A stretch of DNA of 64,000 nt from an uncultured Spirochaetota bacterium (GTDB lineage: Bacteria > Spirochaetota > Spirochaetia > SZUA-6 > Fen-1364), in assembly GCA_963745235.1 (NCBI GenBank), contig CAVUXE010000037.1, positions 96,001-160,000 of the forward strand, written 5' to 3'. The notes beneath the pieces are model-generated. The model had not been told where the DNA came from and made no database searches. It was given only the letters and a program-made list of their open reading frames with translations. Position 1 is the first letter of the stretch. Every line of letters starts with the position of its first letter. This document shows, piece after piece, positions 28,966-45,900 of the stretch. Both the position numbers and the translations under genes were made by a program.

Positions 28966-31287
28966 TCAGAGTCTCACGGTAATTTCCTCTGCTCCCTTTG
29001 CGGGCAGGATCAGGGTTCCTTCAGGGCTGTTCCTGGAGGATCCGTTTTCCACTGCGCTCACCCCCGGCACGTTCCTCAGGCAGACGCTCCAGGGCTTCCC
29101 TGATCCCTTTGCCTTGAGGGTCACGGTGCCGGCATCGAGCCTGACGCTCAGGCCTGTCTCCAGGCCGCCTTCGGTTGATATGACCGAGGCGGTGCATTCG
29201 GCGCCCTCCGCGGGATCGAACACGTGGAAGACCACGCCGTCCGCGTAGTCGTAATCGGGCCTCGTGTCCACCGCCCCCATGGCGATGATGCTTCCCGGTC
29301 GTACCATGAGGGGGAGACTCATGTATCCGTGAGTCTCCGTTCTCCAGCGACCCCCGTCAACGACGTTTCCGCTGAGCAGGCTGGTCCACCTTCCGGACGG
29401 CAGGTAGTAGGACACCGTGCCGTCGTCCCTGAATATCGGCGCCACCAGGAGGGAAGGGCCGAGCATGTACTGCCTGTCCAGCCAGGAGCAGGCGGGGTCC
29501 TCGGGGAACTCCAGCATCATGGCGCGCATCATGGGGATTCCATCCCGCGAGGCCTCTCCAGCCGCGCCGAACAGGTAGGGCATGAGCCGGCATTTCAGCT
29601 GGACGAAGAAACGCAGCACGTCAACGGATTCTTCTCCGAACAGCCAGGGAACGCGGTAGGATTCGTTTCCGTGGAGGCGGCTGTGAGACGAAAGCAGCCC
29701 GAAGGCGGCCCAGCGCCGGTAGAGGTCCGGCGTTGCCGTCTTCTCGAACCCGCTGATGTCGTGGCTCCAGAACCCGAAGCCCGAAAGACCGAGGGACAGG
29801 CCTCCGCGCAGGCTTTCGGCCATGGACTCGTAGGTGGCGGAGCAGTCCCCTCCCCAGTGGACCGGAAACTTCTGCCCTCCAACCGTGGCGGATCGGGCAA
29901 AGACGAGGGCCTTCCCCTCGCCCTGGACCTCTCTCAGAACTTCGAACACGGCCTTGTTGTACAGATATGCGTAATAGTTGTGCATCCGCAGGGGGTCGGA
30001 CCCGTCGTGGTAGACTACGTCAGTCGGGATGCGCTCTCCGAAGTCAGTCTTGAAGCAGTCCACGCCCGCGGCCAGGAGGTCCCGCAGCCTGCCCTGGTAC
30101 CAGGAGACGGCTTGCGGGTTCGTGAAATCCACCAGGCCCATTCCCGCCTGCCAGCGGTCCCACTGCCACACGCCCCCGTCGGGCTTCTTCACGAGATAGC
30201 CATGCTTCATCCCCTCGTCGAAGAGCCGCGACTTCTGGGCGATGTACGGGTTGATCCAGACGCTGATCCGCAGCCCCTTGTCCTTCAGCCTGCGGAGGAT
30301 GCCCCGCGGATCCGGGAATTGCTCGGCATCCCATTCGAAATCGCACCACTGGAGCTCCTTCATCCAGAAGCAGTCGAAATGAAAGACGTGAAGCGGAATC
30401 CGCCGCTCCCTCATTCCCTCGATGAAAGAGGTGACCGTTGACTCGTCGTAGGCGGTCGTGAAGGAGGTGGTGAGCCACAGCCCGAACGACCACGCGGGCG
30501 GGAGCGCGGGCCGGCCCGTGAGCTCGGTGTATCTGCGAAGCACGTCCTTGGGCGTCGGGCCCCCGATGACGTGGTAGGAAAGCTCCTCCCCCGGCACCGA
30601 GAATTGGGCGCGGGAAACCACTTCGGAGGCAATCTCGAAGGAGACTTTCTCCGGGTGCGCCACAAGGACGCCATACCCCGCGCTGCTCAGGTAGAACGGG
30701 ATGTTCTTGTACGCGAGCTCGCTCGCCGTTCCTCCGTCTTCGTTCCACATATCCACGACCTGGCCGTTTTTGACGAAGGGAGTAAAGCGCTCCCCCAGGC
30801 CGTAGACGCACTCCCCCACTCCCAGGGAGAGCTGCTCCCGCATGTAGGGAGTCCCGTCGGAGTCAAGGAGATACCCCGAGCACGCCTTCCCGCTTCCCGT
30901 CAGGCGCTTTCCGTCGAACAGGAAGTCGACGGCCCACTCACCCGCCGTCCTCACGCTCACCGACAGGCGTCCACTGGACAGGACAACTGCATCTGCCGTT
31001 CTTTCGATCCTCGGGACAAAGCCCTCCCTGGCGGCAAGAGCGAATGCCGGGCCCCGCGCAGGCCCGCCCTTGAAGTGACAGAGATGGACGCGGATCACCT
31101 CCGGCGCGGGGGAGCTGAAGGTGAGGGTGAGCTGCGGCGTGTTCAGCGTGTCTCCCCGATGACGAATGGGTTTGCACGGGGCGTAGACGGTGAGAGTGGA
31201 GGCCGTCCAGCCCACGTCCCGCGCCTCCGCAGGGGCAAACAATCGAACCCCGTCCCGCAGGCCCCAGTAGCCGCTTGTGAACTTCAT
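28966..31287 (-). CDS. yicI: Alpha-xylosidase, GH31
   Basis: MKFTSGYW start, YGLGERFTPFVKNGQ, FHFDCFWM, CFKTDFGERIP, HWGGD, WSHDISGF. Confidence 0.93.
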   Translation of the reverse strand: MKFTSGYWGLRDGVRLFAPAEARDVGWTASTLTVYAPCKPIRHRGDTLNTPQLTLTFSSPAPEVIRVHLCHFKGGPARGPAFALAAREGFVPRIERTADAVVLSSGRLSVSVRTAGEWAVDFLFDGKRLTGSGKACSGYLLDSDGTPYMREQLSLGVGECVYGLGERFTPFVKNGQVVDMWNEDGGTASELAYKNIPFYLSSAGYGVLVAHPEKVSFEIASEVVSRAQFSVPGEELSYHVIGGPTPKDVLRRYTELTGRPALPPAWSFGLWLTTSFTTAYDESTVTSFIEGMRERRIPLHVFHFDCFWMKELQWCDFEWDAEQFPDPRGILRRLKDKGLRISVWINPYIAQKSRLFDEGMKHGYLVKKPDGGVWQWDRWQAGMGLVDFTNPQAVSWYQGRLRDLLAAGVDCFKTDFGERIPTDVVYHDGSDPLRMHNYYAYLYNKAVFEVLREVQGEGKALVFARSATVGGQKFPVHWGGDCSATYESMAESLRGGLSLGLSGFGFWSHDISGFEKTATPDLYRRWAAFGLLSSHSRLHGNESYRVPWLFGEESVDVLRFFVQLKCRLMPYLFGAAGEASRDGIPMMRAMMLEFPEDPACSWLDRQYMLGPSLLVAPIFRDDGTVSYYLPSGRWTSLLSGNVVDGGRWRTETHGYMSLPLMVRPGSIIAMGAVDTRPDYDYADGVVFHVFDPAEGAECTASVISTEGGLETGLSVRLDAGTVTLKAKGSGKPWSVCLRNVPGVSAVENGSSRNSPEGTLILPAKGAEEITVRL

Positions 31288-31297
31288 CTGTCTTCCT

Positions 31298-32125
31298 TCA
31301 ACCCTTGACCGCGCCGGCCACCATGCCCTTGATGATGTGCCTCTGCAGGATGAGATAGAAAATGATGGCAGGGGTGATGGTGAGAAGGACTCCCGCCATT
31401 GCGCTCTGCCATTCGATCTTGTACTGGCCGAAGAAGTTGTACGCGGCAAGCTGCAGGGTCTGCGACGCCTTGGACCCGCCGAGGATGAGGAGCGGCAGGA
31501 GAAAGTCGTTCCACATCCACATCGCGTTGATGACAATAACGGAGACCGTCACCGGCTGCAGCAGGGGAAAGGTCACCTGGAAGAACGCGCGCAGGGGCCG
31601 TGCCCCGTCCATGGCCGCGCAGTCATCCAGCTCCGTCGGCACCGTCTTCACGAAGCCGTGGTACAGGAAGAGGGAGAGGGGGACACCGAGGCCCCAGTAG
31701 ACCACGCCGAGCCCCCAGATCGAGTTCGTGAGATGGAAGGTCCTTGCGACTTTCACGAGGGCGATCATGAAGGAGTGGAACGGGATCATCATGGGCGCCA
31801 CGCACACCAGGAACACCAGCCAGCTGATCCGCGTCCGGGTGCGCGAAAGCTTGAACCCGGCAAGGGAGGCCAGGAGAACGACCCCCGCCGTGCCCATGCA
31901 CGTCACGATGAGCGTGTTGATGAACAGGTTCGGGTATCGCATGAGGCGGAATGCATTGGCAAAGTTCTCCCATTCCAGATGGGAGGGCAGCGCAATCACG
32001 TTTTCCATGATCTGGGCAAAGGTCTTCAGCGAATTGAGGATGACAAGGATCAACGGGTAGATGTAGACCAGCGCCAGCACGGTCATGATCAGGGAAATGG
32101 CCAGGGCTCCTCGCAGCCGGTTCAT
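31298..32125 (-). CDS. Carbohydrate ABC permease (MsmG-like)
   Basis: DCAAMDGA, WMWNDFLLPL, GMVAGAVKG. Confidence 0.9.
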   Translation of the reverse strand: MNRLRGALAISLIMTVLALVYIYPLILVILNSLKTFAQIMENVIALPSHLEWENFANAFRLMRYPNLFINTLIVTCMGTAGVVLLASLAGFKLSRTRTRISWLVFLVCVAPMMIPFHSFMIALVKVARTFHLTNSIWGLGVVYWGLGVPLSLFLYHGFVKTVPTELDDCAAMDGARPLRAFFQVTFPLLQPVTVSVIVINAMWMWNDFLLPLLILGGSKASQTLQLAAYNFFGQYKIEWQSAMAGVLLTITPAIIFYLILQRHIIKGMVAGAVKG

Positions 32126-33009
32126 GCCTGCACCTCCCGGCGCTTGAAGGCGTTGAGCTGAGTCACGGTCACCACGAGGATCAGGAGGAAAAGAACGACC
32201 GACTTGGCGGACCCGTAGCCGAAGCGGTTGTCGCTGAACGCCGTCTTGTAGATGTCCAGGGCGATGCTCGTGGTGGCGGTGCCTGGTCCGCCGAATGTCA
32301 GGCTGAAAATGACATCGAAGGTCTTCAGGGCATTGGAGACCGAGTAGAAAACCGCCACGGTCACCGACGGCATGATCAGGGGAAGCGTGATCCGAAAGAA
32401 GCGGCTCACGGGGCTGGCCCCGTCGATCACCGCAGCCTCCAGCTGCTCCCGGGGGACCGTCTGCAGGCCCGCGATGTAGATGACCATGTAGAACCCGATG
32501 GACTGCCATACGGTCACGAGCACGACGCTGAGGAACGCCAGGTGCGAGTCCCCGAGCCAGCTGAGCTGGAAGACGCCCAGGTGCGTGATGGCTCCCAGGG
32601 AGTCGAACCCCCGGGAAAAGATGAATCGCCACACGTAGCCGATGACGATGAGGCTGATGATGTTGGGGATGTAGAACGCGGCCCGCAGGAGGTTCCGGCC
32701 GCGGATCTTCATGTCCAGGATCACCGCGAGCAGGAGGGCAATGACATTGATGGCCACGACGGCCAGGAGCGTGAAGATGAGCGTGAAAACCAGGGCGCTG
32801 CCGAAGGCCGGGTCGCCGACCAGGAGCTCCCTGTAGTTGGCCAGCCCGATGAGCTTCGCCGCCTTGTCGAGCCCGTTCCATCGCGTGAAGGAATACGTGA
32901 TGCTCATCAGGAACGGGATCTCGACAAAGAGAAGGATGACGATCACCGCGGGGGCCGTCATCCAGAGAAACTCAAGCCCGCGCGCCCTGCGGGCCTTCAC
33001 CGCTGTCAT
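32122..33009 (-). CDS. Carbohydrate ABC permease (MsmF-like)
   Basis: SFTRWNG, WQSIGF, EAAVIDGA, LTFGGPG. Confidence 0.9.
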   Translation of the reverse strand: MTAVKARRARGLEFLWMTAPAVIVILLFVEIPFLMSITYSFTRWNGLDKAAKLIGLANYRELLVGDPAFGSALVFTLIFTLLAVVAINVIALLLAVILDMKIRGRNLLRAAFYIPNIISLIVIGYVWRFIFSRGFDSLGAITHLGVFQLSWLGDSHLAFLSVVLVTVWQSIGFYMVIYIAGLQTVPREQLEAAVIDGASPVSRFFRITLPLIMPSVTVAVFYSVSNALKTFDVIFSLTFGGPGTATTSIALDIYKTAFSDNRFGYGSAKSVVLFLLILVVTVTQLNAFKRREVQA

Positions 33010-33025
33010 GAACCTCTCCCCTCTG

Positions 33026-33057
33026 AAAAAGAGGCCGGGGAGCAATGCCCCCCGGCC
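33026..33057 (-). terminator. Hairpin plus U-tract after the binding-protein gene
   Basis: Minus strand GGCCGGGGGGCATTGCTCCCCGGCC-TCTTTTT. Confidence 0.75.
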
Positions 33058-33084
33058 GTCATGATTCGTCGCAACGCCCGGTGA

Positions 33085-34314
33085 CTACTTGGAGGCGTTC
33101 ACGATCTGCGTGTACTTCGCATCCAGGGCATCCAGGGTCTGCTGCCGATTTGTCTGTCCGGCGCAGTATCCCTGGAGGATGATTCCCAGTCCTTGTTCCG
33201 TCCCCGTGGGGAACATCTGGTAGTACCAGGGGTAGCTCGGGACCTTCTCCGCCAGCATGGCCACCGTCGCCTGCGCGAGCTCCGCTGAGGACGCCTTTGC
33301 GCCCTTGATGGGGGAGAGCTGCTTGATCTTGTCCGGGATCCAGGCCTTGCCGTACGCGGAGGTGGTCAGCCACTTCAACCACGCAAGGGCGGCGTCCACC
33401 TGGCCGTCCTTGGCAACCCTGATGGTCTGGTTGGAATCATACATGATCCCCGCCTCAGCCGCAGTCCCGGCCACGGGCCCCCGCAGGAAGCCAATGTCGA
33501 TATCCGGCGTGGTCTTGCGGATGGTGTCTTCCGCCCAGTTGCCCTGGTGCATGATGGCGGCCTTGCCGGTGGCAAGGGTGGAGCACTGGTCGTTGAAGTC
33601 CGACTCCATGGGCTTCCGGCCGCCGTACTTCTTGATCAGGTCCAGGACATCAAAAACGGTGCTCATGCCCTTGATGTCCTTGAACGTAAGGGAGCCGCTG
33701 TTCAGCTTGTCCACCATGCCGGCGAAACCGCCGTAGGCCTTTGCCGCGGGGGCAAGCACCTGCCACGCAGTCTGGGGAAGCACCCACCACTCCTTGAAGC
33801 CGGTCGCGAAGGGCTGGATGCCGCGGGCCTGCAGCTTCTGGGCCGCCGCGGCGTAGTCACTCAGGGTCCGGGGGAGCGTCTTGATCCCGACCTGGGCGAA
33901 GACCTTCTTGTTGTAAATGAAGGAATGGGACTGGACCAGGAAGGGATACCCGGTGATCCGCCCGTTCACGGTCACGCCCTGCAGCGCGGAGGGCTCGATC
34001 TGCTTCATGAAGTCGACGTCCGTCAGGTCATACACGTAGTCCTTGTACGTGGAGTTGTCCGCGTACGCGCTGCTCATGAAGACGTCCGGAATGTCACCGG
34101 AGTTGAGCTTCGCTCTCAGGAGCGTCACGTAGTCGGCCTGGTTCACGGTGATATCCAGCGCGTTTCCGGTGTCCGCCTTGTACGCCGCAGCCATGTCGTT
34201 GTACTGGTCGGTGAGCTCCGGGCTGTAGAAGAACAGCTTCAGGGTCTTTCCCTGGCCAACGGCGAGAGCGGCGCACAGCACCACCAGCGCCGCAGCCAGA
34301 AGGTATCTCTTCAT
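33085..34314 (-). CDS. Carbohydrate ABC substrate-binding protein (MsmE-like)
   Basis: Signal peptide; SGDIPDVF, YNKKVF, GKAAIMHQGNW. Confidence 0.9.
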   Translation of the reverse strand: MKRYLLAAALVVLCAALAVGQGKTLKLFFYSPELTDQYNDMAAAYKADTGNALDITVNQADYVTLLRAKLNSGDIPDVFMSSAYADNSTYKDYVYDLTDVDFMKQIEPSALQGVTVNGRITGYPFLVQSHSFIYNKKVFAQVGIKTLPRTLSDYAAAAQKLQARGIQPFATGFKEWWVLPQTAWQVLAPAAKAYGGFAGMVDKLNSGSLTFKDIKGMSTVFDVLDLIKKYGGRKPMESDFNDQCSTLATGKAAIMHQGNWAEDTIRKTTPDIDIGFLRGPVAGTAAEAGIMYDSNQTIRVAKDGQVDAALAWLKWLTTSAYGKAWIPDKIKQLSPIKGAKASSAELAQATVAMLAEKVPSYPWYYQMFPTGTEQGLGIILQGYCAGQTNRQQTLDALDAKYTQIVNASK

Positions 34315-40413: not shown

Positions 40414-41413
40414 GTGCCGGGACACTGTGTGCCGCGTCATCTCGCGGCAAGCCGCCAGAAGGCGGCTGGCCTTCTCCTTGTGTTCGCCGCGCTCGTGGTT
40501 TTTCCCTTCTTTGCAGGCGACTACCTGGTGGACGTGGCCTTTTTCTTCGGCATCTACGTCCTGCTCGGCCTGAGCCTCAACATCGTCCTGGGTGAAGTGG
40601 GACTGTACGACCTAGGCCACGCCGGTTTCTATGCTATCGGCGCCTACACCACGGCCATCCTCAACACGAGGTTCGGGATTCCCGTGCTCGTCCTCCTGCC
40701 CGGTGAGCGCCCTCGCCGCCGGCCTGTTCGCTTTCCTGGTCACCTCCCCGATCATCCACCTGCGCGGCGACTACCTGTGCATCGTGACCATCGGGATGGG
40801 GGAGATCGTGCGCCTGGCGCTCATCAACAACCCCCTGGGACTCACCGGAGGCCCCAACGGCGTCTACGGGATCGACTCGCCGACCCTCGGGTTCCTCAGG
40901 CTCGACTCCTCTGCCGGCTCCTACGCGCTGATCTGGGTGGTGGTCGGGCTCGCGGTGTTTGCCCTCTTTCGGCTGCAGCGCTCCCGCATCGGCCGGGCGT
41001 GGAACTGCATCCGGGAGGACGAGATCGCGGCGCAGGCCACCGGCATCAACGTTCGCGCGTACAAGCTGCTTGCCTTCGTGCTGGGCGCCGCGCTGGCCGG
41101 CGTGGCCGGGAACCTGTACGCGGTCAAGCTGATGGTGGTCTCTCCGGAAAGCTTCACGTTCTGGGAATCCTGCCTCATGTTCTCCATCGTGCTGATTGGA
41201 GGGATGGGCTCGGTGCCGGGCGTCATCATCGGCGCGGCGGCAATCAGCCTGTTCCCGGAGATCTTCCGCTCCTTCGCGAGCTACCGCCTCGTGGTCTTTG
41301 GCGTTGTCATGATCCTGATGATGATGTTCCGGCCGGGGGGCGTCTGGCCGCGCAGGCGCGGAGGGACCGAATCCCGTGACCTGCTCCTGCGGCTCGGGAG
41401 GCCCCGTGGGTGA
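40414..41413 (+). CDS. livM: Branched-chain amino acid ABC permease; frameshift near 40702
   Basis: GLSLNIVLG...DLGHAGFYAIGAY, then LRGDYLCIVT, IREDEIAA, VLIGGMGS in the shifted frame. Confidence 0.88.
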
Positions 41414-42212: not shown

Positions 42213-42962
42213 ATGCCGCCGCTTCTCCAGGTGAAAGACCTGCACATCCACTACGGGGCGCTGGAAGCGCTGAAGGGGGTGACCCTGTCCGTGGAGGAAG
42301 GGGAGATCGTGACAGTGCTCGGCGCCAACGGGGCCGGGAAGAGCACCCTCCTGCGCGCCATTTCGGGCCTGCTTGCGGCCAGGGACGGAGAGATCCTCCT
42401 TGACGGCGCCTCCCTGTCGCGCGTGCCCGCGTGCGACATTGTGCTGAAGGGGATTTCCCATGCCCCGGAGGGCCGCAAGGTCTTCTCCACGCTCACCGTG
42501 GAGGAGAACCTCAACCTGGGGGCGTTCACCCGTCGACACCGAAGGCAGGAAGTCACCGAGGCGCGGGAAAGAGTCTTCGGCCTTTTCCCGCTGCTCTCTG
42601 ACCGCAGGCGACAGCTGGCCGGGACGCTCTCCGGCGGTGAGCAGCAGATGCTGGCAATGGGCAGGGCCCTGATGAGCACGCCCCGGATCCTCCTCCTGGA
42701 CGAGCCCTCACTTGGTCTTGCGCCAATCCTCGTGAACCTGATCTTCGACATCATCCAGGAGATCAACCGCCAGGGCGTGGCAATCCTCCTGGTGGAGCAG
42801 AATGCCCACCAGGCCCTCGCGCTGGCGCGGCGCGGATATGTGCTGGAGGCGGGCGTGATTTCCGCGCAAGGCGCGTCACGGGAGCTGCAGTCCGACCGGC
42901 GGATTCAGGAGGCGTACCTGGGAGGCTCGGGTCTCAACGCACGCGGGCCCGAGCGGGGCTAG
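42213..42962 (+). CDS. livF: Branched-chain amino acid ABC ATPase
   Basis: GANGAGKST, PEGRKVF, LSGGEQQMLA, LDEPSLGLAP, VEQNA. Confidence 0.93.
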   Translation: MPPLLQVKDLHIHYGALEALKGVTLSVEEGEIVTVLGANGAGKSTLLRAISGLLAARDGEILLDGASLSRVPACDIVLKGISHAPEGRKVFSTLTVEENLNLGAFTRRHRRQEVTEARERVFGLFPLLSDRRRQLAGTLSGGEQQMLAMGRALMSTPRILLLDEPSLGLAPILVNLIFDIIQEINRQGVAILLVEQNAHQALALARRGYVLEAGVISAQGASRELQSDRRIQEAYLGGSGLNARGPERG

Positions 42963-43768
42963 CGCTGGCGGACCTTGCCGGGGGCGCGCGGCGGGTGCGC
43001 CCGGGCGGGAGAAAGCGGCTCCGCAATCGGCGTGCTCTCTATCTTCTGGTTCATGATTGCAAGCCCGCCCCCCGCGCTCAGCGTGCTCATGATGACATCG
43101 TGCACGAGGGCCTCGTGACTCAGCCCCCTGCTTCTTCCCAGGCCGTAGACGAGCGCCAGGGACGCGTAGCCGGAGGGCTGCATGCCGCTCGCCATGAGGA
43201 GCTTGCCGATCTGCGCGGAGTCCGCGTCCTCCAGGGGTGCAACGGCTCGCAGGTCCATGATGGCCCCGCAGGCGGCCAGCGCGGACTCGTAGCCTCTCTG
43301 CATGCCCGCCCCCGCGGCGAGGAGCTCTCCGACAAGCTTGTCGGGAAGTCCCGCGCGGAGATAGATCCCGACCTCTTTGAGCGTCTCGTCTCCGGGACGC
43401 GAGAGGAAGGTCCCGCGCAGCCCCGCATTGGCCATGAGGAGCCGGGCCTGCTCCAGCCGCCCCAACTCTCCGTGAAGAGCGCTCACCAGCGTGTCAGGCG
43501 GGATTCCCTTTGCCTCCCCCTCCCGGAGCCTCTCCATGAGCAGCCACTGGGGAACATGGCGCTGGCCTGCTTCCGAAAAGATGTGGCCAAGCTCGCCGCG
43601 AGCGCTCGCGTACGCCGCGGAGCGGGGGTCTGACCCGTACCAAGTCTTCAGCAGGTCGCTCCACGACGCGCCTGCACCGGCGACAAGCAAAACCGATGAA
43701 AAAAGAAGGATTGCCGCGAGAGGCACGCGGCCGGCTCCGGAGGGGACGTTCATGACGTGAACCCTCAC
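42959..43768 (-). CDS. Hypothetical exported alpha-helical protein
   Basis: N-terminal hydrophobic signal or anchor; GTGA overlap with the anti-sigma gene; no recognisable catalytic motif. Confidence 0.75.
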   Translation of the reverse strand: MRVHVMNVPSGAGRVPLAAILLFSSVLLVAGAGASWSDLLKTWYGSDPRSAAYASARGELGHIFSEAGQRHVPQWLLMERLREGEAKGIPPDTLVSALHGELGRLEQARLLMANAGLRGTFLSRPGDETLKEVGIYLRAGLPDKLVGELLAAGAGMQRGYESALAACGAIMDLRAVAPLEDADSAQIGKLLMASGMQPSGYASLALVYGLGRSRGLSHEALVHDVIMSTLSAGGGLAIMNQKIESTPIAEPLSPARAHPPRAPGKVRQR

Positions 43769-44400
43769 AACCTGAGCACGGAGCTCAGACCGCCGAAGCC
43801 ATCATCGATCTGGCTTTCCGAGTGCGGATCCGGGACCCACCGCTGCCCGTCGATCAGGAAGTCGTAGGTGTAGATTCCCCCCGCGCGCAGCGGCACGATG
43901 ATTTCCCAGACGCCGTGCTGTCCGGCCTTCAGGTTCAGCTCGCCGGGACGCCAGCCGTTCCAGTCACCCGCAAGGCTGACCCGTGAGGCCAAGGGAGCCT
44001 CCAGGGTGAAGCGCACCATGACCTGGGCGCCCGCGGAGCGCATGCGCCCCTGGAGGACAAGTCCGCCAATCCCCAGGAGAAGGGCCACGCACCCGGCCAG
44101 GGGAAGCGCCCATCTGACCGTCTGCATGGTTCGTCCGGAGAAGTGATGCACCTTCACTCTGGTGGCCCGTCGCATGACCGAATCCGTGAAGGAGGATGAC
44201 GGCGATTCTTCGAAGGGAACCAGCCCGGAACGCTCTCCCGCGTCGCGGCGGATCAGAGGGATCAGTGCCCCGTAGGCGCGCGCGCACCGTTCGCACGCCC
44301 GGCTGTGATTGATGATGAAAAAGAGGCTCTGGGCATCTGAGACATGCCCTTGTTCCCACTCGCTGATTGCCGCGTCCACGCGTTGACAGGTGTCGTTCAT
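43765..44400 (-). CDS. Zinc-binding anti-sigma factor with C-terminal CBM48 (glycogen-binding / isoamylase early set) domain
   Basis: HxxxCxxC (HSRACERC), one TM helix, VRFTLEAP..SRVSLAGDWNGW...GVW...YTYDFLIDGQRWVPDP...DDGFGG. Confidence 0.85.
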   Translation of the reverse strand: MNDTCQRVDAAISEWEQGHVSDAQSLFFIINHSRACERCARAYGALIPLIRRDAGERSGLVPFEESPSSSFTDSVMRRATRVKVHHFSGRTMQTVRWALPLAGCVALLLGIGGLVLQGRMRSAGAQVMVRFTLEAPLASRVSLAGDWNGWRPGELNLKAGQHGVWEIIVPLRAGGIYTYDFLIDGQRWVPDPHSESQIDDGFGGLSSVLRL

Positions 44401-44446
44401 ACCGCTGCCTGCTTTGTTACTCTGCCGTTGCCTGCTGGTTATTATA

Positions 44447-45037
44447 CTATGGTAGACCTTCCTTCGTTGCGTTCCTCTGGAGACTTTCGCGCAGCTTCTG
44501 CCGGCCGCGGAAAAGGCGGGACTTCACGTTTTCCACGCCGATATTGAGCACCGCCCCGATTGCCTCCACCTTCATCTCCTCGTAGTAGTACAGCACAACC
44601 ACCTCTCGCAGGGTGGGCGGGAGGGAGTCCACGGCACGGCGCAGCGCGTCTCGCTCGTATTCCTCCATCACGACGCGCTGCGGGTCGGCCTCCCCGCCCG
44701 CGGCCAGCTCGACCTCCACGGCGGTCACCCGCTCCTCGCGTCTTTTCATGCGGCCGTAGGCGCTGCGAAGGTGGTTGACGGCAATGCTGTAGAGCCAGGG
44801 AAGGAGCTTCCTGTCCAGGCTGAAGCGGTGCAGCGACCGATAGGCGCGCAGGAAGATCTCCTGCGCCGCCTCCTCCGCCTCCTCCCGGTTGCCAAGGAAA
44901 GAAAGGGCAAGCCTCACGACGAGGCCCTTGTAGCGATCCACGATGAGCCGAAAGGCGTCCCGGTTTCCGCGGAGGACCTCGCCGATGGCGGCGAGCTCGT
45001 CCGCGCGTTCACTCTCCCCGGCGCGAATCTCTTCCAC
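44447..45037 (-). CDS. ECF sigma-70 factor
   Basis: AEEAAQEIFLRAY, WLYSIAVN, LPPTLREVVVLYY, VKSRLFRGR. Start GTG 45037 inferred from TGgTACATT-N7; an upstream start is possible. Confidence 0.92.
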   Translation of the reverse strand: MEEIRAGESERADELAAIGEVLRGNRDAFRLIVDRYKGLVVRLALSFLGNREEAEEAAQEIFLRAYRSLHRFSLDRKLLPWLYSIAVNHLRSAYGRMKRREERVTAVEVELAAGGEADPQRVVMEEYERDALRRAVDSLPPTLREVVVLYYYEEMKVEAIGAVLNIGVENVKSRLFRGRQKLRESLQRNATKEGLP

Positions 45038-45391
45038 GGGAGTCAATGTACCACCCCGCGCCTGGAAAAAGGACAGACCGCATGTTTTCATTCCTGCAAC
45101 CGCGCCGCCACGGGGCGGGTACAATGAAGGGTCACCATTGTGGGCGCTGTCGGCCTCCCCAGAGAACTGAACAGCGCGCGGGAGAGCGAAAGCGCGGGCC
45201 CCGTTCCGCGCGCCTCCCGCAAATCCCTTTCCACGGCCGGCCGCAGGCCCCCCTGAGCGCCCTTGATCGGGGGCACTGGACCGGCCATCTTTTTTCCCGG
45301 GCCAGGTGCATGCAATAACCCGCCGCGTCGTTCGTCTTTGAGAGCATGACGATCACGGCCCCCGCAGGGTCCCCGTCTCACGCGCAGGCGC

Positions 45392-45456
45392 TTGACGCTC
45401 GGCGCGAAAGACTGTATGTTTTCGAATATTACGGAATCGAACATTTCGTAATCGAA
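45392..45456 (+). promoter_or_regulatory. MarR operon promoter with three 15-bp-spaced operator units
   Basis: TTGACG-N17-TATGTT; units TATGTTTTCGAA (45415), TACGGAATCGAA (45430), TTCGTAATCGAA (45445). Confidence 0.7.
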
Positions 45457-45465
45457 GAAACGACC

Positions 45466-45900
45466 ATGAAAGAAATACAGCTTCTTGAGCTCCTGGGTGA
45501 CATCTACCGCCGGGTCTTCCGGGCCGTCGCCCCACTGGCGCAGTCGGAAGGCCTCTCCATGACGGAGATGCTCGTCGTGTGGAAGATGCACTCGCGGGAA
45601 TGCCGCAGGGTGAAGGAGCTGGTCGCGGAGATCGGGCTTCCCCCGAGCACGCTCACCGGGATCCTGGACCGTCTCACCGCCGCCGGCTGGCTCGCCCGGG
45701 AGGACGACCGGGAGGACCGCAGGGCCGTGGTCATGAGGCGCACGGAGAAGCTGGACAAGTTCATCCGCATCTTGAGGCAGGAAAGAACGAAGTCCCTGGA
45801 GGCTGCATTCCGCAAGCTCCCCCGCGACCTCGTCGAACGGCTGACGGAAGACCTGACCGCCGTTCATGACATTCTGGAAGCTGAGGAGAAGCAGGAATGA
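45466..45900 (+). CDS. MarR family transcriptional regulator
   Basis: ELVAEIGLPPSTLTGILDRL...DREDRRAV winged helix. Confidence 0.9.
   Translation: MKEIQLLELLGDIYRRVFRAVAPLAQSEGLSMTEMLVVWKMHSRECRRVKELVAEIGLPPSTLTGILDRLTAAGWLAREDDREDRRAVVMRRTEKLDKFIRILRQERTKSLEAAFRKLPRDLVERLTEDLTAVHDILEAEEKQE

Follow-up and report, generated by a model that had tools for sequence, protein, structure and literature searches.

Extracytoplasmic function (ECF) σ factors and their anti-σ factors are among the commonest signalling systems of bacteria; to our knowledge, the input signal is unknown for most ECF groups. In the RseA/RseB/σE system of E. coli, the gene directly downstream of that for the single-pass anti-σ factor RseA encodes a secreted protein, RseB, which binds the periplasmic domain of RseA and locks it until a signal removes RseB; lipopolysaccharide brings about this release. 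In the SigI/RsgI systems of C. thermocellum, membrane anti-σ factors carry extracellular carbohydrate-binding modules (CBM3, CBM42 or similar) that report polysaccharides outside the cell; these systems use a SigI-type σ factor and an RsgI N-terminal domain and have no helical partner protein. Here we analyse a locus (42959..45124, minus strand) in a stretch of 64,000 nucleotides from an uncultured Spirochaetota bacterium (contig CAVUXE010000037.1, positions 96,001 to 160,000; hereafter the window) that encodes an ECF σ factor, a one-helix anti-σ factor ending in a CBM48 fold, and a secreted helical-repeat protein, hereafter the partner. The locus is a real, conserved three-gene ECF module, of which the σ/CBM48-anti-σ pairing has been noted in print before, and we hold it moderately probable that the three proteins work as a sensor in which the partner serves as the lock.

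The σ/anti-σ half of the module has a printed counterpart in ECF278s1. According to the section on this group in the supplement of Casas-Pastor et al. 2021 (PMC7826278), the anti-σ factors of ECF278s1 carry a periplasmic AMPK glycogen-recognition domain and "could be sensing glycogen", and the predicted promoter has GTGAC as its −35 and GTATA as its −10 element. The same section describes ECF278 from Desulfovibrio, Syntrophobacter and Chloracidobacterium; its text on the group mentions no third conserved protein, although later ECF groups may lie outside the text searched. ECF25, which seems to have a similar taxonomic spread, is described with zinc-binding, DUF4384 or DUF4349 anti-σ factors, not with CBM48. 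The terms CBM, glycogen and isoamylase are absent from the main text of PMC7826278, and PMC7406223 has no occurrence of CBM, glycogen, carbohydrate, isoamylase or AMPK. An earlier note on this DNA, written from its sequence, had proposed a sensor of periplasmic α-glucans and knew of no experimental characterisation of such a system. The latter statement fits the literature found, in which full-text searches, judged by title and abstract start, returned no experimental work on a CBM48 anti-σ system of this kind, but the core inference of the note is, given the ECF278s1 annotation, already in print as a computational annotation without experiment. What is new, as far as the searched literature reaches, is the third component and its predicted docking on the sugar site.

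The trio consists of three co-directional minus-strand open reading frames (ORFs), which the earlier note had placed correctly: the ECF σ gene (44447..45124), the anti-σ gene directly downstream of it (43765..44400; 211 residues) and the partner gene (42959..43768). Third-position GC content is 0.79–0.81 in all three and is similar in the other real genes of the window, whereas antisense ORFs have lower values (0.5–0.67); the trio ORFs are real, tightly linked genes. The architecture also stands as it was first read: an ECF σ factor is followed by a single-pass anti-σ factor that has an HxxxCxxC motif and ends in a CBM48 fold, and by an exported helical protein whose gene is tightly linked.

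The central evidence for an interaction outside the cytoplasm is a predicted complex between the CBM48 domain of the anti-σ factor (residues 119–211) and the mature partner (residues 29–250), modelled with separate alignments. The complex scored 0.85 (0.85, 0.84 and 0.85 in three runs) against 0.00 for the best of three controls; contact agreement among runs was at least 92%, and the predicted local distance difference test score (pLDDT) of the partner was at least 85. The mark set for the tool is reached by 116 of 157 solved complexes and by 2 of 215 mismatched pairs, reference counts that are only rough here because our own alignments were used. Since no solved structure resembles the partner, it is unlikely that the pair passed through memory of a known complex. 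The earlier note had suggested just such a prediction and had pictured the third protein as an RseB-like modulator; the score and the position of the partner gene beside the CBM48 gene in 15 of 20 related loci lend that picture support, at the level of a structural model.

In the model, CBM48 contributes residues 144–146, 149–152, 175–176, 178, 188, 195–202, 206, 208 and 210, which together form the face bearing W150, W188 and F202. The partner contributes E74, R77–K82, I84, T88, L89, A92 and E96 along with parts of the next repeats, and the lowest-error pairs join W150 to partner residues 77–82, W188 to K82, and F202 to residues 78, 79, 82 and 84. The partner motif predicted to contact the three aromatic residues, E74 followed by E78-G79-E80-A81-K82, is encoded at 43508..43534 (minus strand). 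Among 134 partner-family representatives, E78 (0.93), G79 (0.89) and K82 (0.96) rank with the best-conserved positions of the whole protein, and the mean frequency of the top residue is 0.48 at the 25 interface positions as compared with 0.34 at the other 191. The interface coincides in both families with the most conserved positions, so that the predicted contact unites the best-conserved feature of each; the model suggests that the partner binds the ligand face of CBM48.

The gene set is not confined to the window. A word-indexed protein search returned 41 relatives of the anti-σ factor and 29 of the third protein, and the few with a source name come from "Spirochaetia bacterium" assemblies. 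For relatives more than 60% identical the gene neighbourhood could be seen only indirectly: 14 anti-σ/partner pairs have a longest contig of the same size and were counted for linkage, and in one close relative the two accessions are consecutive (HUI72296.1 and HUI72295.1). In species-representative genomes, where the best anti-σ match is 38% identical (a Treponemataceae assembly), 79 loci gave CBM48-like matches; we kept the 20 whose product is small and has a hydrophobic segment ahead of a CBM48 at its C-terminus and set aside the remaining 59, mostly GlgB-sized enzymes or other architectures. An ECF σ gene lies directly upstream in 17 of the 18 loci with upstream DNA (12 by Pfam, with L002, L010, L016, L023 and L024 added by BLAST to the window σ; L007 has none, and upstream DNA is missing for L014 and L034), and a relative of the partner lies downstream in 15 of the 20 (profile match to a plus-strand ORF, E ≤ 1e-3). 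The loci come mostly from Gemmatimonadota, the others from Nitrospira, a Deltaproteobacteria assembly and Spirochaetes. Because σ and partner recur around the CBM48 anti-σ factor across phyla, this survey, which the earlier note had recommended, argues for a wide conserved module rather than a chance neighbourhood.

The extracytoplasmic CBM48-fold domain spans residues 126–211 of the anti-σ factor (43768..44025, minus strand) and includes W150, W188, D200 and F202. It was identified by Pfam, by PDB profile and by Foldseek: CBM_48 (PF02922) matches residues 128–189 with 33.7 bits, above its curated cut-off of 22.4, AMPK1_CBM matches with 25.4 bits, just below its cut-off of 26.8, and the modelled fold is a β-sandwich. 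The top Foldseek matches of the anti-σ model are the AMPK β CBM, the CBM48 of GlgB and the plant phosphatase SEX4; entries that contain the AMPK domain by itself (1z0m, 1z0n and 4yef) have target template modelling scores (TM-scores) of 0.63–0.72. A PDB profile search with the anti-σ family matched GlgB (E 4.9e-9) and AMPK β (E 3.7e-6). It also matched type II pullulanase and ferulic acid esterase, so that the description of CBM48 as normally cytoplasmic, with which the locus was first introduced, is too narrow.

In the AMPK β CBM, according to a review (PMC9788615), two tryptophans (Trp100 and Trp133) provide stacking contacts with glucose units, Lys126 and Asn150 form hydrogen bonds and Leu146 pierces the cyclodextrin ring, and mutation of the two tryptophans abolishes the effect; for plant PTST, PMC4339375 reports that starch binding was abolished when the aligned tryptophans were mutated. 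We mapped these residues through a HMMER alignment of one related CBM (L010) with that of AMPK β-2 (2f15) and through a family alignment in which 7 of the 59 set-aside loci served as controls; the counts cover the window and the 20 related loci (n = 21). Trp100 corresponds to W150 (Trp in 21 of 21), Trp133 to W188 (Trp in 19 of 21) and Leu146 to F202 (Phe in 19 of 21). Lys126 corresponds to D180, a position with Lys in 0 of 21 and with D, N, Q, M, A, V or S instead, and Asn150 corresponds to S206, with Asn in 10 of 21. This CBM48 subfamily also conserves a D-x-F-G motif (D200 to G203); AMPK has S-Q-L-G there, lacking both the Asp and the Phe, and the aromatic residue of the motif is the one aligned with Leu146. 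By alignment, the aromatic platform is retained and the polar contacts are not, a pattern that neither shows nor excludes glucan binding.

The partner is 269 residues long if read from GTG 43768, which overlaps the anti-σ stop codon by 4 nucleotides (GTGA), and 264 residues if read from ATG 43753, which lies 8 nucleotides after GAGGG. Its putative signal peptide comprises residues 1–29 (43667..43753, minus strand), with a hydrophobic window that peaks at residue 10 (mean 2.22) and a break between AGA and SW; the ASWSD that follows the hydrophobic stretch is conserved in the family. The AlphaFold2 (AF2) model, built on a 26-sequence alignment (mean pLDDT 83.6; predicted TM-score (pTM) 0.73), has 11 helices and no strands, which by eye form four helix-turn-helix units with a Gly-x-Pro-like turn in each. 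The partner has no match in Pfam or NCBIfam, and in the PDB no fold reached E ≤ 0.001 by Foldseek. The best hits were helical repeats, either designed or of TAL effectors (E 0.15 or worse, TM-score at most 0.26), from which we draw no homology. In an exhaustive profile search the partner family comprised 347 cluster representatives at E ≤ 1e-3, of which 142 reached E ≤ 1e-10; Pfam assigned no family to 30 representatives, bar one sub-threshold chance match. A protein atlas search returned only unnamed Gemmatimonadota clusters (0.89), which we treat as a lead only.

The N-terminal part of the anti-σ factor carries the motif H32-x3-C36-x2-C39 (44284..44307, minus strand) and, upstream of it, C5 (44386..44388), a candidate fourth ligand, a combination characteristic of class I zinc-binding anti-σ (ZAS) factors. 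The family alignment shows C5, W15, E16, H32, C36 and C39 to be conserved, and within the Spirochaetia-type family (22 members) conservation reaches 90% or more for each of C5, H32, C36 and C39; the Pfam model zf-HC2 matches 5 of these 22 members (best E 4.9e-4). A transmembrane helix is placed at about residues 97–116 (44053..44112, minus strand), the sole stretch with a Kyte-Doolittle mean of at least 1.6 over 19 residues (peak 2.33, best window residues 98–116), and the 21 residues on its N-terminal side include 6 Lys/Arg. The AF2 model of this protein, weaker than that of the partner (mean pLDDT 72.3, pTM 0.40), places helices at residues 3–16, 23–35, 37–53 and 69–81, a long helix at 89–123 and the β-sandwich from residue 126.

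The σ factor belongs, by its domain content, to the ECF (group 4) σ70 family: it contains region 2 (Sigma70_r2, PF04542, E 3.9e-15) and region 4 (Sigma70_r4_2, PF08281, E 2.9e-15), has no region 3, and passes the NCBIfam model TIGR02937 sigma70-ECF with 100.7 bits against a cut-off of 42.9. No narrower NCBIfam family or equivalog model passed its own cut-off among the best 25 of 97 matches, and the σ factor of the Treponemataceae trio locus (L001) is 41% identical to it. The longest ORF encodes 225 residues and offers three starts, TTG 45124, ATG 45091 and GTG 45037. The upper limit of 45037 first given for the gene does coincide with an in-frame GTG, but the ORF extends to 45124; the true start is likely ATG 45091 or GTG 45037.

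Our results are compatible with the following mechanism. The ECF σ factor would be held inactive in the cytoplasm by the helical N-terminal domain of the anti-σ factor, which contains the Cys/His-x3-Cys-x2-Cys site, and the single membrane helix would place the C-terminal CBM48 fold in the periplasm. There the secreted helical-repeat protein is predicted to bind CBM48, with its most conserved loop, E78-G79-x-x-K82, sitting on the aromatic cradle of W150, W188 and F202, which in AMPK-type CBM48 domains is the site that holds glucan; the periplasmic complex would be the sensor. By analogy with RseB, the partner may act as a lock that keeps the anti-σ factor stable until a signal removes or remodels the partner, upon which the anti-σ factor would be inactivated, probably by regulated proteolysis, and σ would be freed. 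Candidate signals are a glycan in competition with the partner for the cradle, or a ligand of the helical protein. A narrower version, that the glucan cradle has become a protein-docking site plugged by the E-G-x-x-K loop and that a glycan or envelope ligand displaces the plug and fires σ, is one that we advance tentatively and consider on balance doubtful.

Several points weigh against the partner-locked sensor. The evidence for binding between partner and CBM48 is a structural model, and the conserved tryptophans would be expected equally if CBM48 simply binds glucan. No partner gene was detected at profile E ≤ 1e-3 in 5 of the 20 related loci (L016, L023, L024, L027 and L034), and no longer protein in which partner and CBM48 are fused was found, a weak negative. 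On the cytoplasmic side, the anti-σ factor of the window has no zf-HC2 match at E ≤ 5, and a PDB sequence search with its residues 1–95 gave only a chance match (E 0.69). Within 15 residues of the membrane helix there are 3 positive charges on each side, and the proposed topology is therefore based on motif logic and on the signal peptide of the partner. Proteolytic release is likewise put forward by analogy only, because no protease gene adjoins the trio in the window.

The locus can be read in other ways. Several features of CBM48 speak for a direct α-glucan sensor, in which the periplasmic CBM48 binds glycogen or maltodextrin and thereby releases σ, with the helical protein only modulating the response: the Pfam match is above the curated cut-off, the fold is AMPK-β-like, the equivalents of Trp100, Trp133 and Leu146 are kept, and the same inference stands in the printed section on ECF278s1. 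The window also holds a glycoside hydrolase family 31 (GH31) gene and sugar ABC transporter genes about 12 kb away. The same site, however, lacks Lys at the Lys126 position in every protein compared and has Ser in the window at the Asn150 position, the interface predicted for the partner covers the same face, and, since CBM48-like sequence occurs in ferulic acid esterase as well, the ligand cannot be read from the fold. No GH13 or glycogen gene was found among the 47 window proteins scanned, and no glycoside hydrolase or glycogen enzyme among 30 chosen flanking proteins of 17 related loci (27 downstream, 1 upstream and 2 between the anti-σ and partner genes). The lack of conservation at the Lys126 and Asn150 equivalents and the absence of glycogen genes nearby weaken the case for α-glucan as the signal, which is unproven, and we regard the direct α-glucan sensor as unlikely.

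The conserved cysteines and histidine of the anti-σ factor, along with the zf-HC2 matches in its family, would also suit an RsrA-type cytoplasmic thiol or zinc redox switch, in which oxidation of the Cys/His site is the signal and the periplasmic part is only an anchor. The wider comparison runs the other way: of the 20 related anti-σ-like proteins, only 3 (L001, L002 and L011) have HxxxCxxC, whereas CBM48 and the partner gene are kept across phyla, so that the conserved input is more likely periplasmic than a cytoplasmic thiol switch, and we give the redox switch little credence. Equally improbable, in our view, is that the third gene codes for an envelope protein outside the sensor and is simply one of the targets of σ, transcribed along with it. 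ECF operons often carry members of their regulon, and the loci in which the partner gene was not detected could be read in this sense, but the gene adjoins that of the anti-σ factor in most of the 15 loci that have it, across phyla, and the strong complex prediction places a conserved partner motif at the interface. Taken together, these comparisons leave the partner-locked three-component sensor as the reading that we favour, with the moderate confidence stated at the outset.

Eight related loci have an additional gene in the neighbourhood of the partner gene, and its product, too, has a C-terminal CBM48-like domain (L004:5986-7050, L027:4065-5198, L010:4856-6514, L005:5312-5725, L016:5277-6518, L017:5694-7193, L024:5893-7059 and L026:6087-7277). 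Four of the products were recognised by Pfam AMPK1_CBM and the rest linked by BLAST; the genomes belong to Gemmatimonadota, Nitrospira and Salinivenus. The gene is mostly downstream, in L005 it lies between the anti-σ and partner genes, and L016 is a locus with no detected partner gene. For the helical protein, such a product might serve as a second client or as a decoy. The window contains no fourth CBM48 gene and no paralogue of the anti-σ factor or the partner.

Signals for expression were read from the DNA around the trio. A GTGAC at 45131..45135 (minus strand) could serve as the −35 element of an ECF promoter if the σ gene is autoregulated, which we treat as a lead only; no GTATA-like −10 element was found at the right spacing after it. 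Upstream of three Gemmatimonadota σ genes (L017, L019 and L021), at about −100 from the σ2 region, we observed GTGAC-N18/19-GT(T/C)A(T/C)(A/T), which resembles the promoter printed for ECF278s1, of which the window has the GTGAC only. The pattern GT[GC]AC-N17-19-GTnAn[AT], chosen post hoc, occurs in 3 of 18 σ upstream regions, the window not among them, a count reached by 0 of 500 shuffles. Because the pattern is post hoc, limited to 3 of 18 regions and not present in the window, we make no promoter claim. When 13 σ upstream regions were searched without bias for dyads that could mark a common promoter, GC-rich words prevailed, and the result was set aside.

The σ and anti-σ genes are separated by 46 nucleotides (44401-44446, minus strand), and this gap holds a perfect TATAAT after TAG (CCATAGTATAATAACC) with no good −35 element before it; it may be an internal promoter or a chance occurrence. 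The consensus scan did not report this TATAAT, and a scan of 42700..45500 for σ70 promoters and terminators found nothing above shuffle expectation. The start of the anti-σ gene has only a weak ribosome-binding site.

On one side the trio is flanked by a convergent branched-chain amino-acid ABC transporter set, whose ATPase gene (42213..42962, plus strand) overlaps the stop codon of the partner by 4 nucleotides at 42959-42962; the two genes meet at their 3′ ends, and this overlap leaves no room for a terminator between them. On the other side is a divergent MarR/MFS/HlyD efflux set. Within the transporter set, a second branched-chain permease gene (40414-41413) is apparently split between frames: the ORF from 40414 overlaps the Pfam-matching ORF at 40631..41413, in which the Pfam match begins at position 57 of the 269 of the profile. 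The split may be due to a frameshift or an assembly error. The GH31 hydrolase, sugar ABC transporter genes and an adjoining LacI-type regulator occupy 28966-34314; they are the carbohydrate-use genes nearest to the trio, and no link to σ has been shown for them.

If the reading of the cradle as a plugged docking site is correct, the locus would represent a widespread, wholly uncharacterised three-component pathway of envelope sensing in Gemmatimonadota, Nitrospira, Desulfobacterota-type and Spirochaetia genomes, and in some phyla the fourth CBM48 protein may act as a decoy. The module offers a concrete sensor complex, made of a well-understood fold and a new helical family, with a prediction of contacts at the level of residues. 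Should the partner occupy the sugar site, it would be misleading to annotate such proteins as "glycogen-binding" or with an "isoamylase early set domain", and the CBM48 fold would gain a role in protein recognition in bacteria; should a glycan compete with the partner, this would be a new logic of carbohydrate sensing, comparable, in its principle, to the way in which lipopolysaccharide releases RseB.

The locus shares with ECF278s1 the ECF σ factor, the one-helix anti-σ factor at position +1, the periplasmic AMPK-type glycogen-recognition domain and the GTGAC upstream of σ; it differs in that no GTATA-like −10 element accompanies this GTGAC in the window, and unlike ECF278 as described, the window copy comes from a Spirochaetia-type genome and has a third protein. 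A membrane anti-σ factor with a carbohydrate-binding-type module outside the cell recalls SigI/RsgI, although Pfam matched no RsgI-, SigI-, CBM3- or CBM42-type family in the trio. The CBM48 domain has the same fold and the same two tryptophans as the AMPK β CBM (1z0m, 1z0n, 2f15 and 4yef) but does not keep the equivalents of Lys126 and Asn150, has the D-x-F-G motif in addition and stands in a periplasmic context, and the model predicts that its site holds a protein rather than a glucan. The periplasmic part of RseA is not a CBM48, and the trio has no linked protease gene. The partner, moreover, is all-helical, with no Pfam, NCBIfam or PDB fold match, and as no Pfam family matched, it is not of the RseB family; its resemblance to RseB is functional only. 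In the model proposed here, the two systems would nevertheless share one principle by analogy: a secreted protein encoded downstream that acts as a lock on the periplasmic domain of the anti-σ factor.

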